A stretch of 64,000 bases of DNA, from the NCBI RefSeq assembly GCF_044324785.1, contig NZ_CP172127.1; one strand, 5' to 3'. The position numbers were made by a program, and so were the translations under genes. Shown in pieces: positions 7,433 through 21,328 of this stretch. Within the stretch, counting starts at the first letter, position 1; every line of letters begins with the position of its first letter. This stretch comes from Escherichia coli (GTDB lineage: Bacteria > Pseudomonadota > Gammaproteobacteria > Enterobacterales > Enterobacteriaceae). The notes beneath the pieces are model-generated. The model had not been told where the DNA came from and did not search any database. It saw nothing but the letters and a program-made list of their open reading frames with translations.

Positions 7433-8614
7433 TTAATGAGAGGTCAGGGTGTTATGCTGACGGTGACGGCTGACGAAACCTAACAGGAAGCACATCACAA
7501 AGACGACAGCGTACAGACCGTTTGCTGTAAGCAGTGCCGCCTGCGGACCGCTATGTTCAACAATCGGGCCGGTAACCACAAAGGTCAACATAGTACCGAT
7601 GGTCCCGCAGGTCAGGACAAAGTTAACCAGTTTTGGCGACGGTACTTTGGTCTGCTGTGAACCCAGGGTGATGATGGTGGTATAGATCGCGCTGGAGAAG
7701 AAGCCCAGGGCGAGAATTGACCACGCCATATGTGCCGGTGTTCCGGTGTTAAAGACGTACATCAGAATCGCAGCCAGACCAGCCAGTACGGTCAGGATAC
7801 GTTGCAAATCAAAGAAGCGAAGAATAAAGCTGAACGCCCACATGCCGACCATATATGACATCCAGAAGTTACTCACCAGCGTGCCCGCGTCGTTCAGGCT
7901 CATGCCCAGGCCTTTGGCATACTCCGGCACCCAGGAGATAAAACCTAACTGACCGAGGATGTAGCACAGCGCCGCAACAGAGAGAAACAGCACGCCGATC
8001 CCCCATTTTTCTTTCACTACCGGAGCATCCGTTTTTGGCGCATGTTTGCCCAGCGCCGGGAACTCACAACCGAAGGTCAGAATAAAAATAGCGACATACA
8101 CCAGCCCGATGCAGGCATAAACCCAGTACCACTCAATGCTGCGCGCCAGTAGAAACGCGGCGATCATTGGGAAAATCATCCCAGCCATACTGAAGAAGGA
8201 GTCGGTAAATAACAGGCGGGAACCGCGCTGACGCCCTTCATACATTTGTGTTATCAGGAATGTACCAATCGACATGGTGATGCCGCTGACCACCCCGAGA
8301 ATGAACATCGCCGCCGAGAACAGCGCCAGGCTGTGGCTGAACATCAAACCGGCAACCGCCAGCACCATCAGGAGAAAGCCAAAACGTAACTGCGTTTTCA
8401 ACGGGACGATTTCCATCAGCCAGGCGTTGAGGAAGATAGAGATTAAAATGCCGGCGTTGAGGAAGGTGAAGGTATTACTCATACTGGAAACAGGCAGATT
8501 GAAATAATCGGCGATATTTCCCATCACCATCCCGGTGACAATAACCAACGCACCGGTCAGTGCGTAGGAGAGAAAGCTAATCCATGTGAGCTTGATGCGA
8601 TTGCTGTTAGTCAT
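7433..8614 (-). CDS. tsgA: MFS-family membrane protein TsgA
   Basis: 393 aa [24 protein letters not shown], 12-TM pattern. Confidence 0.9.
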
Positions 8615-8875
8615 GATTGGCCTGCGTTCAAAAATAAAATGGCATAGCGGGATATGCCGCGAGCGGGCGATTTTAGGTGATTTTGTGATCTGTTTAAATG
8701 TTTTATTGCAATCGGTTGCTAAATTGCATTTTAAGAGGTGATTTTGATCGCAGAATAAAAAGTGATCGTCAGGTTACATATATTTCAGATACGTAAAATT
8801 AGGTAAAGGGATGGCCTTGTTCTTGAAGGCTATTTAGAATCTCTTCACTTGCTTTTTTTCTGCTCTGTTTGTTAA

Positions 8876-9457
<582 letters not shown>

Positions 9458-9465
9458 TGATTTCT

Positions 9466-9494
9466 CGCGCGGGCAATCTTGCCCGCGCTTCTGC
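9466..9494 (+). terminator. putative ppiA terminator hairpin
   Basis: cgcgcgggc-aatctt-gcccgcgc stem-loop 9 bp after the ppiA stop; weak T-run. Confidence 0.45.
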
Positions 9495-9561
9495 TCTCCC
9501 GGCGTAACCCGGATTTGCCGCTTATACTTGTGGCAAATGGACACGTTCAGGGAGGCATCAA

Positions 9562-9729
9562 GTGAAGAAACTCACCGATAAGCAAAAGTCCCGTCTCTGG
9601 GAACTTCAGCGTAATCGTAATTTCCAGGCCAGTCGCCGTCTTGAAGGCGTCGAGATGCCTTTAGTCACTCTTACTGCCGCAGAGGCTTTAGCGCGCCTTG
9701 AAGAGCTGAGGAGGCACTATGAGCGATAA
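9562..9729 (+). CDS. yhfG: small protein YhfG (antitoxin-like partner of Fic), 55 aa, GTG start
   Basis: Manual translation [55 protein letters not shown]; overlaps the fic start by 11 nt. Confidence 0.7.
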
Positions 9730-10321
9730 ATTCGGCGAAGGGCGCGATCCGTATCTTTATCCTGGCCTTGATATCATGCGTAACCGGCTGAACATCCGCC
9801 AGCAGCAGCGGCTGGAACAGGCCGCTTACGAAATGACGGCGCTGCGTGCTGCGACCATTGAGCTTGGTCCGCTGGTGCGCGGTTTACCGCATTTGCGCAC
9901 TATCCATCGCCAGCTGTATCAGGATATTTTCGACTGGGCAGGGCAACTGCGTGAAGTTGATATTTATCAGGGCGATACGCCGTTCTGCCACTTTGCCTAT
10001 ATCGAAAAAGAGGGCAATGCCCTGATGCAGGATCTGGAGGAAGAAGGTTATCTGGTTGGCCTGGATAAAGCGAAGTTCGTCGAGCGGCTGGCACATTACT
10101 ATTGTGAAATCAACGTGCTGCATCCCTTCCGTGTGGGAAGCGGACTGGCACAGCGGATCTTCTTCGAGCAGCTGGCGATTCATGCGGGCTACCAACTGAG
10201 CTGGCAGGGTATCGAAAAAGAGGCCTGGAATCAGGCAAATCAGAGTGGGGCAATGGGGGATCTCACCGCGCTGCAGATGATATTTAGCAAAGTGGTAAGC
10301 GAAGCCGGGGAATCTGAGTAA
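9719..10321 (+). CDS. fic: Fic-family protein (adenylyltransferase)
   Basis: 200 aa ORF; Fic motif [12 protein letters not shown] present. Confidence 0.93.
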
Positions 10322-10352
10322 AATAGCGCGGTTCTTTCGTACCGGAGCCGCC

Positions 10353-10916
10353 ATGATCCTGCTTATAGATAACTACGATTCTTTTACCTGGAACCTCTAC
10401 CAGTACTTTTGTGAACTGGGGGCGGATGTGCTGGTTAAGCGCAACGATGCGTTGACGCTGGCGGATATCGACGCCCTTAAACCACAAAAAATTGTCATCT
10501 CACCCGGACCCTGTACGCCAGATGAAGCCGGGATCTCCCTTGACGTTATTCGCCACTATGCCGGGTGCTTGCCGATTCTTGGCGTTTGCCTCGGTCATCA
10601 GGCAATGGCGCAGGCATTTGGCGGTAAAGTTGTGCGCGCCGCAAAGGTCATGCACGGCAAAACCTCGCCGATTACACATAACGGTGAGGGCGTATTTCGG
10701 GGGCTGGCAAATCCACTTACCGTGACACGCTACCATTCGCTGGTGGTGGAACCTGACTCATTACCAGCGTGCTTTGAAGTGACGGCCTGGAGCGAAACCC
10801 GCGAGATTATGGGGATTCGCCATCGCCAGTGGGATCTGGAAGGTGTGCAGTTCCACCCGGAAAGTATTCTCAGCGAACAAGGACATCAACTGCTGGCTAA
10901 TTTCCTGCATCGCTGA
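10353..10916 (+). CDS. pabA: aminodeoxychorismate synthase glutamine amidotransferase subunit
   Basis: 187 aa [22 protein letters not shown]; class-I GATase catalytic Cys in GVCLGHQ. Confidence 0.95.
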
Positions 10917-10986
10917 TTTCTGATTGCTATTAAGTGATTTTTTATGCATATTTTGTGATTGTAATTTCATGTTGGTTTATGCGTAA

Positions 10987-12225
<1,239 letters not shown>

Positions 12226-18074: not shown

Positions 18075-18829
<755 letters not shown>

Positions 18830-18933
18830 ATCAGCATACTTGTCCTTAGCCTTCTGCAGTGACAGCTGGTAGTACAGCGTGCTTCTGGCCAGCCCTGCAG
18901 CCTTTAACAGGTCAGACTGGCAGTGTCCGCACC

Positions 18934-19464
18934 TCAGGCTCCGGATGACTTTCGTTTTTTCTCCAGCTCCTGGCGCTTTTTTTCCAGGAGATGCTCCTGC
19001 ATGGCTTTCAGATATGCATTTTCTGCGCGAAGATAACGCAGCTCATTCTTCATCTCTTCCGGCGTCATGTTTGCCTCGTTTTCATGGGTATCATCAGAAC
19101 GGGTCATGCTTTTCTCCTTCCTGCGCCTGATAAAGGCCTCATTACCAGATTTGCGGTAGCCTTTTATCCAGTTTTTAACCGTGTTGTGGCTGGGAATGTT
19201 AAACCGGGCAGCTACCCGGGGTAGAGACTCAGAATGCCCGAGAGCATAAAGAACCACGCAAAGTTTATCTTCAGGAGAATAGCTACGCTTGTGTCTGCAA
19301 TCCAGTGCCCGAGGACCGTGAAGAAGAAAAAGATTAATCCAGTGTGAGAGGCTGGTGTGAGAAAGTTGAAAGAGTTTTGCCGTAGAAATGATGCCTGCAT
19401 GACCAGCCAGGTAATGATTTACAGCGGCAAGTTTTACTTCAAATGAATGTTTCATAAACTGCAC
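18934..19464 (-). CDS. IS transposase OrfA (HTH DNA-binding, leucine-zipper-like C-terminus)
   Basis: 176 aa ORF; size and motif KHSFEVKLAAVNHY typical of IS150-group OrfA. Confidence 0.85.
   Translation of the reverse strand: MQFMKHSFEVKLAAVNHYLAGHAGIISTAKLFQLSHTSLSHWINLFLLHGPRALDCRHKRSYSPEDKLCVVLYALGHSESLPRVAARFNIPSHNTVKNWIKGYRKSGNEAFIRRRKEKSMTRSDDTHENEANMTPEEMKNELRYLRAENAYLKAMQEHLLEKKRQELEKKRKSSGA
18976..18982 (-). other. programmed -1 ribosomal frameshift site A_AAA_AAG
   Basis: Transcript reads CUG GAA AAA AAG CGC in the orfA frame; the -1 frame is open from here through orfB. Confidence 0.7.
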
Positions 19465-21328
19465 CTTCAGATGTCAGATTATGTCCAACATTTGGGGTGC
19501 AGTTCATGGCTTGCTGTTGCAGGCATGCGGTCAGTTCTGCTTTACGGCTTTGATCGTACAGTTCGCTGTCGCCGAGTTTCTCTTCCGCCTGCGCCAGCTG
19601 TGCGTTCAGCTTCTCCATCTCTTTTTCCAGACGGGCAATCTCTTTACGCAGTGGCTGGGTTTGCGCACGCAGCTCCGCTTCCCGACGCTTCTGATCTTTA
19701 CGTGCCTGGGCGCTGTTCGCGTTCTCTTTTGGCGAGTCGTCGGCCTGGTTTTCCTGCTTTTGTACGTCGCTCAACCACTGTTGATAATCTTCCAGATCGC
19801 CGTCGAACGGTTCGACTTTACGATCGTGAACCAGGTAGAGATCGTCAGTGGTGGAACGCAGCAAATGACGGTCGTGCGAGACGACAACCAGCGCGCCTTC
19901 GAACTCGATTAATGCTTCGGTGAGAGCCTGACGCATGTCGAGGTCAAGGTGGTTGGTCGGTTCGTCGAGCAGCAGCAGATTCGGACGCTGCCAGACGATT
20001 AATGCCAGCACCAGGCGGGCTTTTTCCCCACCGGAAAAGCGGCGCGTTTCTTCCGTCACTTTATCGCCCTGGAAACCAAAGCCGCCGAGGTAGTCACGCA
20101 GTTTTTGTTCCAGTTCCTGCGGCGCTAAACGTGCCAGATGTTGAATAGGCGATTCGTCGGCGCGCAGGTATTCCAGTTGATGCTGGGCGAAGTAGCCGAG
20201 CTTGATCCCTTTCGCCAGATCAATTTCACCGCTGACTGGCGCAAGTTCGCCGGCTAACAGTTTGATTAATGTCGATTTACCCGCGCCGTTGCGGCCTAAC
20301 AGACCAATGCGCGAGCCGGGGACCAGATTCAGTTTAATCGAGTCGAGAATAATGCGATCACCATAGCCTGCGCTGACTTTTTCCATCTTTAATAACGGAT
20401 TAGGCAGGCTTTCCGGCGCGCGGAAGCTAAAACGAAACGGGTTGTCAACGTGCGCGGGGGCAATCAGCTCCATACGCTCGAGCATCTTAATGCGGCTCTG
20501 GGCCTGCTTCGCTTTGGTGGCTTTGGCACGGAAACGGTCGATATAACTTTGCAGATGCGCCACGCGTTCCTGCTGGCTTTCGTACATCGCTTGTTGCTGC
20601 GCCAGACGGGTGGCGCGCTGCACTTCAAACGAACTGTAGTTGCCGGTGTACTCGAACATGCTTTGTTGTTCGATATGAATAATTTTATCAACGATCGGAT
20701 CGAGGAAGTCGCGGTCGTGAGAGATCAGGATCAGCGTGCCCTGATAGCTCTTCAGCCATTTTTCCAGCCAGATAACGGCATCGAGATCGAGGTGGTTAGT
20801 CGGTTCGTCGAGCAGCAGCAAGTCTGAACGGCAAATCAGCGCCTGGGCAAGGTTAAGACGCATACGCCAGCCCCCGGAAAAATCACTTACCGGGCGCTCC
20901 AGTTGTTCATTGCTGAAACCGAGGCCGTGCAGCAGGCTGGCGGCGCGGGAGCGAATACTCCATGCGTCGATAGCATCCAGCTTGCCATGAATGGTCGCAA
21001 TGGCGTGCCCGTCGTTACGTTCGTTGGCGTCGTGTAGCTGCGCTTCCAGTTGACGATATTCACGGTCGCCGTCAATGACATATTCCAGCGCCGCTTGCGG
21101 TAACGCCGGCGTTTCCTGATTCACCCACGCCAGTTGCCAGCTTCCCGGAAAGGTGTAGCTGCCGCCGTCGGCGCTGATTTCATTTTTCAGCAATGCCAGC
21201 AGGGTAGATTTACCACAGCCGTTTTTACCCACCAGGCCGACTTTCTGCCCGGGGTTGATGGTGGCGGTGGCATTATCCAGCAGGACGCGCACGCCGCGAC
21301 GAATTTGTAACGAGGAGAAAACAATCAT
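19439..21328 (-). pseudogene. yheS: ABC-F family ATPase YheS, interrupted after codon 607 by the IS; reading frame runs 22 codons into the IS
   Basis: 629 aa ORF with two ABC cassettes; native sequence ends ...TACLQQQA, followed by IS-encoded MNCTPNVGHNLTSEGAVYETFI and stop at 19439. Confidence 0.85.

Follow-up and report, generated by a model that had tools for sequence, protein, structure and literature searches.

The yhfG-fic locus of Escherichia coli: a core chromosomal class I Fic module with a degenerate active site

In the 64,000-nucleotide stretch of the Escherichia coli contig NZ_CP172127.1 (assembly GCF_044324785.1) analyzed here, hereafter the window, two overlapping genes lie on the plus strand between ppiA and pabA. 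The first, yhfG (synonyms: ficA; product EcFicA), extends from a GTG start codon to a TAA stop codon at 9562..9729 and encodes 55 amino acids, the class I Fic partner or "antitoxin". The second, fic (synonyms: ficT; product EcFicT), occupies 9719..10321 and encodes, from an ATG start codon, a FIC-domain protein of 200 amino acids. E. coli Fic is the founding member of the Fic family and was discovered some forty years ago. The two frames share the 11 nt ATGAGCGATAA (9719..9729, plus strand), which begin with the start codon of fic, end with the stop codon of yhfG and place fic in the +1 frame; a previous sequence-only reading of this DNA, which had described a GTG-initiated frame of 55 codons overlapping the fic start by 11 nt, was exact on this point. 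The gene order of the region, tsgA (minus), ppiA (plus), yhfG-fic, pabA, argD and yhfK (minus), agrees with that of annotated E. coli genomes, and pabA itself (10353..10916, plus) starts 31 nt 3' of fic. An antisense ORF of 156 codons (9884-10354, minus), wholly contained within fic and the start of pabA, was treated as spurious. Elsewhere in the window, a copy of IS1397 (IS3 family) at 18076-19506 has inserted within the 3' end of yheS, taking the place of the last 31 codons and parting yheS from yheT.

Both genes have a recognizable Shine-Dalgarno sequence. That of yhfG, GGGAGG (9550..9555, plus), is separated from the GTG by a 6-nt spacer, and AGGGAGG is kept before yhfG at the Salmonella, Klebsiella and Leclercia loci; that of fic, GAGGAGG (9708..9714, plus), lies within the yhfG coding sequence, 4 nt 5' of the ATG. 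Further upstream there are a GC-rich hairpin with a 9-bp stem and a 4-nt loop directly 3' of the ppiA stop codon (9467..9488, plus) and, 33 nt 5' of the yhfG GTG, a TATACT hexamer (9523..9528, plus) that is a candidate -10 element of the fic promoter.

The smaller gene is easily overlooked. With 55 codons it stays below the 60 residues that the ORF lister requires by default, in keeping with its absence from the program-made ORF track, as had been remarked. Its product nonetheless matches the Pfam family PF10832 (YhfG) over its full length with E=1.6e-24 (85.9 bits, cut-off 22.6) and the NCBIfam equivalog PRK10204 with E=7.7e-38 (128.4 bits, cut-off 77); this profile search, which the sequence-only reading had proposed as a check, thus gives a full-length match above the curated cut-offs of the YhfG family. 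The protein is identical in 54 of 55 positions (98%) to the crystallized chains 5JFF_B and 5JFZ_B, and RefSeq labels the small gene either "yhfG: YhfG family protein" or "ficA: FicA/YhfG family antitoxin"; the pair was, as the same reading had supposed, already known in E. coli. The Salmonella, Klebsiella and Leclercia orthologs agree with yhfG in length and in start position, the start codon being ATG in some of them. Comparison with these orthologs gave dN/dS values of 0.05-0.09 for yhfG, 0.04-0.12 for fic and 0.05-0.09 for pabA, all of them rough because dS is saturated (>1). The constraint that these values indicate is clearly strong for both yhfG and fic, on par with that on pabA, and, judged by its sequence, the 55-codon frame is a real gene and not a chance ORF. 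The locus can hence serve as a calibration case of a real gene that falls under common ORF cut-offs.

In several public assemblies, the two frames appear as a single-chain YhfG-Fic ORF of 252 amino acids, which in the one assembly examined results from the loss of 1 nt within the GAGGAGG. In Buttiauxella izardii, an in-frame deletion has fused YhfG and Fic into a chain of 200 amino acids, likewise encoded between ppiA and pabA.

The larger protein is a member of the Fic family. It matches the Pfam Fic domain PF02661 (E=6.5e-14), the NCBIfam equivalog PRK10347 (E=1.6e-129) and the PDB chain 5JFZ_A (E=8.5e-134), to which it is identical in 197 of 200 positions, one of the differences being the G2 of the crystallized construct. 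The Fic motif that the sequence-only reading had located is present, in the translation, at residues 135-146 (H135-R146; 10121..10156, plus), and its degeneracy had gone unremarked. His135, the Phe, both Gly residues and the last arginine, R146, are kept; V139 stands in place of the D/E residue, S141 in place of Asn and L143 in place of the first arginine (R1). The three replaced residues are those that a Fic motif needs for the binding of ATP/Mg2+: the acidic one coordinates Mg2+ and the first Arg binds the beta-phosphate. A regular expression for the canonical FIC AMP-transferase signature finds nothing in the E. coli protein, and the pair is for this reason not a canonical FIC AMPylase. The substitutions are a property of the whole group: among the 120 closest Fic homologs (79-100% identity), all 120 have a hydrophobic residue at both 139 and 143; none has lost the H, the F, either G or the last R, and the central position is mostly occupied by N or S.

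The [S/T]xxxE[G/N] inhibition motif, which had not been found by eye in the sequence-only reading, is in fact present in YhfG. A regular expression locates it as S24-R-R-L-E28-G29, at the end of helix 1 (codons 9631..9648, plus), and the same scan shows it to be absent from Fic itself. The pattern arises in 3.2% of composition-preserving shuffles of the 55-residue protein; its conservation is considerable, with SRRLEG present in 104 of the 120 closest YhfG homologs (about 113 when near variants are counted) and E28 invariant in an alignment of 26 sequences. The presence of SRRLEG in YhfG therefore strengthens the class I reading of the locus.

This reading is further sustained by the published structures of the E. 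coli complex (Stanger, Harms, Dehio and Schirmer, PLoS One 2016, PMC5033356), of which PDB 5JFF contains Fic G55R with YhfG and 5JFZ contains Fic with YhfG E28G. The EcFicT/EcFicA complex is a stable 1:1 assembly with a Tm of 63 °C and a mostly hydrophobic interface of 1641 Å2, in which the two helices of YhfG embrace Fic and the SRRLEG segment enters the Fic active site; there, S24 and E28 bind R146, the latter through a salt bridge, and R25 binds T40 (PMC5033356). The replacement E28G in YhfG lowers the Tm of the complex by 10 °C (PMC5033356). In the scheme of Engel et al. (2012), as summarized in PMC5033356, a class I system has a FIC fold in a larger protein, which is found here (PF02661, 5JFZ_A and, with E=1.6e-33, VbhT), an inhibitory motif on a separate small upstream protein, which is the SRRLEG at residues 24-29 of YhfG, and a complex in which the Glu pairs with the second arginine (R2), which is provided by the published structures of a pair 98-99% identical to ours. 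The yhfG-fic pair is accordingly a class I Fic module, a FicT with a separate FicA.

Whether such a module also behaves as a toxin-antitoxin (TA) system is a distinct question. The sequence-only reading had described a TA-like class I Fic protein held inactive by a small upstream partner; the architecture and the crystallized complex bear out the first part of this description, while "toxin" and "held inactive" describe architecture only, because the Fic motif is degenerate and no AMPylation was seen even with E28G. In the account of PMC5033356, for which the primary source is Harms et al. (2015, Cell Rep), neither auto- nor target-adenylylation by EcFicT could be shown, even when the inhibition motif was mutated (YhfG E28G). 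According to PMC5033356, fic knock-outs are viable, and it is the gain-of-function allele fic-1 (G55R) alone that filaments, a phenotype that the structure left unexplained. In our sequence, the codon of Gly55 (GGT, 9881..9883, plus), the classical fic-1 site, is wild type; the crystallized chain 5JFF_A has R55.

In a bona fide type II TA system, free Fic would AMPylate DNA gyrase or topoisomerase IV, as VbhT and Fic-1 do, and growth would be arrested once the labile YhfG was degraded. The layout of the locus resembles that of VbhTA and of Fic-1-AntF, the small gene overlaps its partner (by 11 nt) and its product binds it directly (as in the published complex structures), YhfG is called an "antitoxin for Fic" in some annotations and TA surveys, and the fic-1 allele leads to filamentation. 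There is also a match of Fic to the NCBIfam VbhT family (E=1e-40), yet it is far under the cut-off (140 vs 800 bits). Against this stand the Fic motif without D/E, N and R1, the adenylylation that was not seen with E28G, and the viable knock-outs (PMC5033356), together with YhfG itself, in which no DNA-binding domain was found, PF10832 being its sole Pfam match. We thus judge a genuine TA toxin to be very improbable, and the functional type II TA membership of the pair is unproven. The label "toxin-antitoxin" speaks here of architecture rather than of demonstrated function.

The distribution of the pair leads in the same direction. A 1-kb yhfG-fic region was recovered from 5425 of 5426 complete E. 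coli genomes. Its places number 5428 in all, the median genome having one, and 5427 of them lie on the chromosome. This near-universal, single-place and chromosomal distribution makes yhfG-fic a core gene pair and not a mobile addiction module, and PMC5033356 likewise concludes that the module is core and non-mobile. Type II TA modules are expected, typically though not as a strict matter of definition, to be mobile, patchy and horizontally distributed; yhfG-fic is core, single-copy, syntenic and vertical, which is a further argument against the TA toxin. The same evidence bears on the idea of an anti-phage abortive-infection module that would be triggered when phage infection removes YhfG. 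Fic does match the PADLOC family PDC-S04 strongly (E=2.7e-75), yet PDC families have the status of candidates, and PADLOC returns nothing for YhfG. The neighboring ppiA, pabA and argD are housekeeping genes and not a defence island, the locus belongs to the core and keeps its synteny across genera, and its Fic motif is degenerate. We consider such a defensive role very improbable.

Synteny of the locus is kept in Salmonella, Klebsiella, Leclercia, Shimwellia, Winslowiella and Rouxiella. In all eight orthologous loci examined, pabA lies directly 3' of fic, and in the four close loci the intervening gap is 31-32 nt. The 11-nt overlap recurs letter for letter in Salmonella, Klebsiella and Leclercia, and three of four more distant orthologs keep an overlap of 11 nt. 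These four divergent loci (L001, L003, L005 and L007) were picked from the matches of a YhfG profile search across 1.84 billion representatives, which gave 54 matches at E<=1e-3, and their contigs were looked up; those inspected among the 54 are either small proteins of the YhfG type or fusions of YhfG with Fic, and the search did not widen the family. The Fic motif reads HPFRDGNGRAQR in Winslowiella (L001), HPFREGNGRAQR in L003, HPFRYGSGRAQR in Rouxiella badensis (L005) and HPFRTGNGRAQR in Shimwellia pseudoproteus (L007), this last being the ortholog from which the overlap is absent. Each of the four loci is followed by pabA-argD and has ppiA close by, with a HerA-like gene intervening between ppiA and yhfG in Rouxiella.

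Two conclusions on ancestry follow from this comparison. A motif that is canonical or nearly so survives in the syntenic orthologs, so that the lineage of E. coli goes back to a canonical FicTA module; and because all four divergent loci share the site, the module is old at its position between ppiA and pabA, and it is the lineage of E. coli, Salmonella, Klebsiella and Leclercia that has lost R1 and the acidic residue. The loss was not solitary. In an alignment of eight sequences, the change of R143 to L, M or I goes perfectly with the changes of E36 to A and F67 to Y, and the tracking of R143 by positions 36 and 67 agrees with the specificity-determining positions of PMC5033356. In this subgroup, a specific pocket made of A36, T40, Y67, F71 and V139 is conserved beside His135, the anion-binding Gly residues and R146. 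Both E28 of YhfG and H135 of Fic are invariant in the alignments that we made.

This pattern of conservation is also what must be set against the view of Fic as a dead pseudoenzyme, or regulatory scaffold, tied to pabA and folate metabolism, with YhfG as its partner in folding or stability. The constant position of fic immediately 5' of pabA, with its short gap in the close loci, would suit such a role, and the older genetics linked fic to PABA/folate and to cell division (Komano 1991, cited second-hand; PMC5650638 lists "Fic (PABA or folate)"); the published work found no activity (PMC5033356). However, a strictly conserved His135, conserved anion-binding Gly residues, R146 and a subgroup-specific pocket form the pattern of an enzyme, not that of a relic, and we consider this alternative quite improbable.

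The signals that surround the two genes suggest how the module may be expressed. The region 9455-9565 folds with -50.4 kcal/mol (z=-4.4 vs shuffles), and the hairpin at 9467-9488 is probably the ppiA terminator and, as such, the upstream boundary of the yhfG-fic unit; a simple terminator scan missed it because its T-run is weak. A review lists TATACT as the -10 element of the fic promoter, which has no -35 and is controlled by RpoS (Utsumi 1993 and Tanaka 1995, as cited in PMC5650638), and we would place this promoter at the hexamer at 9523-9528. With TATACT at this position, yhfG would be the first cistron of the "fic" transcript. A sigma-70 promoter scan of the ppiA-yhfG spacer found none, which fits an RpoS promoter devoid of a -35 element and proves nothing. 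The literature and our own inference suggest that the fic transcript probably continues into pabA. A search of 8600-11100 against Rfam gave as its sole match a chance U1, well below threshold.

At the level of translation, the Shine-Dalgarno sequence 4-5 nt 5' of fic and the overlap are conserved among the orthologs, and the 11-nt overlap, from which the sequence-only reading had deduced a coupled synthesis, plausibly helps the equimolar synthesis of YhfG and Fic. Several observations speak against translational coupling proper: fic has a strong Shine-Dalgarno sequence of its own, no structure sequesters its ribosome-binding site (the fold that might hide it, at -26.7 kcal/mol with z=+0.6, was not significant), and the Shimwellia ortholog dispenses with the overlap altogether.

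Taken as a whole, these data are with considerable confidence best explained by a chromosomal class I Fic module that is the domesticated descendant of a FicTA system, with an E28-R146 lock, a reshaped Fic and RpoS-dependent transcription. On this explanation, the pair would be the vertically inherited and domesticated descendant of a canonical AMP-transferase/antitoxin module, whose Fic would no longer AMPylate or arrest growth and would have been reshaped for a different, non-ATP substrate and target. YhfG would be both a lock on the active site and the obligate stabilizing partner of Fic, which it would gate or stabilize; the overlapping, tightly spaced frames would favor production of the two proteins in equal amounts; and transcription would start from the RpoS-dependent TATACT promoter 5' of yhfG and probably proceed into pabA.

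What is described here is correct and not new: the pair, its motif, the structure of the complex and the degenerate site were published in 2016. Compared with the crystallized EcFicT/EcFicA, ours is the same locus with the same proteins, and the motifs, the overlap and the neighbors all match. The allelic differences from the crystallized construct are R51 in YhfG (S in the construct) and R27 (H), D116 (E) and S2 (G) in Fic; none of them falls in the motifs.

The prototype of the class I FicTA modules is VbhT/VbhA of Bartonella schoenbuchensis (PDB 3SHG, 3ZC7). Its FIC fold matches that of the E. coli protein, and VbhA is, like YhfG, a small upstream partner with an SxxxEG motif whose Glu pairs with R2, the operon order being alike. 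VbhT, in contrast to E. coli Fic, has the canonical HxFx(D/E)GNGRxxR, AMPylates gyrase and topoisomerase IV and is toxic (PMC5033356); VbhA has three helices whereas YhfG has two (PMC5033356), and modules of the VbhTA type are mobile whereas E. coli yhfG-fic is core.

The closest solved non-enterobacterial relative of E. coli Fic is Fic-1 of Pseudomonas bijieensis 2P24, known in complex with AntF (PDB 8WT0; PMC13327609); E. coli Fic matches Fic-1 with E=5.5e-49 over 196 residues. As PMC13327609 describes it, AntF uses S24 and E28 against R146, as YhfG does, and Fic-1, whose motif is HPFREGNGRAQR, AMPylates GyrB at Y111, the Fic-1-AntF complex being a deAMPylase. Neither phmmer nor the profile of 26 sequences, searched against PDB, relates YhfG to VbhA or AntF, only YhfG itself being returned at E<=10; since there is no similarity that HMMER can detect, the relationship rests on the motif and on the published structural superposition.

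The relationship with Fic-1-AntF invites the suggestion that the YhfG-Fic complex is itself an active two-subunit hydrolase, akin to a deAMPylase, in which Glu28 of YhfG would be catalytic and not merely a plug. The 2026 report on Fic-1-AntF assigns an essential, catalytic role to Glu28 of AntF in the deAMPylation of GyrB (PMC13327609), and the likeness of the two Fic proteins, the very stable EcFicTA complex, the invariance of E28 and H135 and the equally strong constraint on both genes speak for such a hydrolase. However, with V139 the metal-binding acidic residue is gone and with L143 so is R1, which argues against the same chemistry, and PMC13327609 indicates that the Fic-1-AntF activities depend on specific metal ions; moreover, E. 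coli is not known to possess an AMPylase from which the substrate could come. We regard such a deAMPylase-like activity as improbable. A broader conjecture, which we hold to be unlikely though worth stating, is that YhfG-Fic may be a domesticated, non-TA two-subunit enzyme of new chemistry, carrying out either a His135-dependent transfer from a non-ATP diphosphate or a Glu28-dependent de-modification, on a target possibly tied to the axis of pabA/folate and cell division. Were it true, it would account for the persistence of the module between ppiA and pabA throughout the Enterobacterales, and it would bear on the cAMP-dependent filamentation by fic-1, the phenotype that gave Fic its name.

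The domesticated class I module that we favor may also be compared with its own syntenic orthologs of canonical motif ("subgroup 1" of PMC5033356). They share the ppiA-yhfG-fic-pabA-argD position and have genes of similar length, with a Fic identity of 59-65%; unlike E. coli Fic, they retain R1, mostly also the N and the D/E, together with E36 and F67. The motifs of their partner proteins vary (SSRLEG, SQHLEG, SMALDG and SAALDD), and in some of them Asp replaces the inhibitory Glu.

The window segment carrying the yhfG–fic pair (9400–10400) has a closest match of 99.2% identity among 5426 complete Escherichia coli genomes, and one YhfG entry of 63 aa, annotated in Shigella flexneri, covers 91% of the query at 100% identity. 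The Fic protein encoded here (9719–10321) matches PDC-S04, a PADLOC family of candidate anti-phage proteins (E=2.7e-75), and no PADLOC family was matched by YhfG; the neighbors of this fic copy are housekeeping genes. On the minus strand, a 156-aa ORF (9884–10354) runs opposite fic and the first part of pabA and was taken as spurious, a mechanical ORF within two constrained genes.

Elsewhere in the window, the first ~1.5 kb (1–1489) gave no alignment to the part of E. coli N3 that precedes yhfL, which means that the two differ in gene content over this stretch. In addition, the 3' end of yheS, which encodes an ABC-F ATPase, is interrupted by an IS3-family element (18076–19506) annotated elsewhere as IS1397, whose genes (18107–18829 and 18934–19464) are on the minus strand. 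As a consequence of this insertion, IS-derived sequence stands in place of the final 31 codons, giving a YheS of 629 aa versus 637 aa, and the element separates yheS from yheT, two genes that overlap by 1 nt in E. coli N3. The flanks of the IS1397 copy have 5 bp in common, which may be a target duplication.

Among homologues of the pair, the "invariant" glutamate of the inhibitory motif is replaced by aspartate in two syntenic YhfG orthologs whose Fic partners retain the first arginine (R1) of the Fic motif. One of these (L003:3001–3171) reads SMALDG and is paired with the Fic motif HPFREGNGRAQR; the other, from Rouxiella badensis (L005:3001–3171), reads SAALDD and is paired with HPFRYGSGRAQR.

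In some other assemblies the two genes appear joined. The 200-aa protein P0310, annotated in Buttiauxella izardii (L013:2501–3103) in the same ppiA/pabA context as in the window, consists of YhfG residues 1 to ~30 (ending ...SSRLD) followed by Fic from about residue 45, with the Fic motif HPFFVGSGRAQR. Here a natural deletion has fused the two genes at the same locus. Several independent public assemblies contain ORFs of 252–253 aa (P0121, P0300, P0305 and P0306) in which YhfG and Fic form one chain. In the E. coli-like assembly GCA_027494295.1 (L012:1501–2259), the fusion is caused by a 1-nt deletion that shortens the GAGGAGG run (window 9708–9714), moving yhfG into the fic frame and eliminating the Shine–Dalgarno sequence of fic. 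Such a single-chain ORF may represent either a true allele or a sequencing error. If the allele is real, the fused ORF would make a class II-like Fic, with an N-terminal inhibitory helix, from a class I system.
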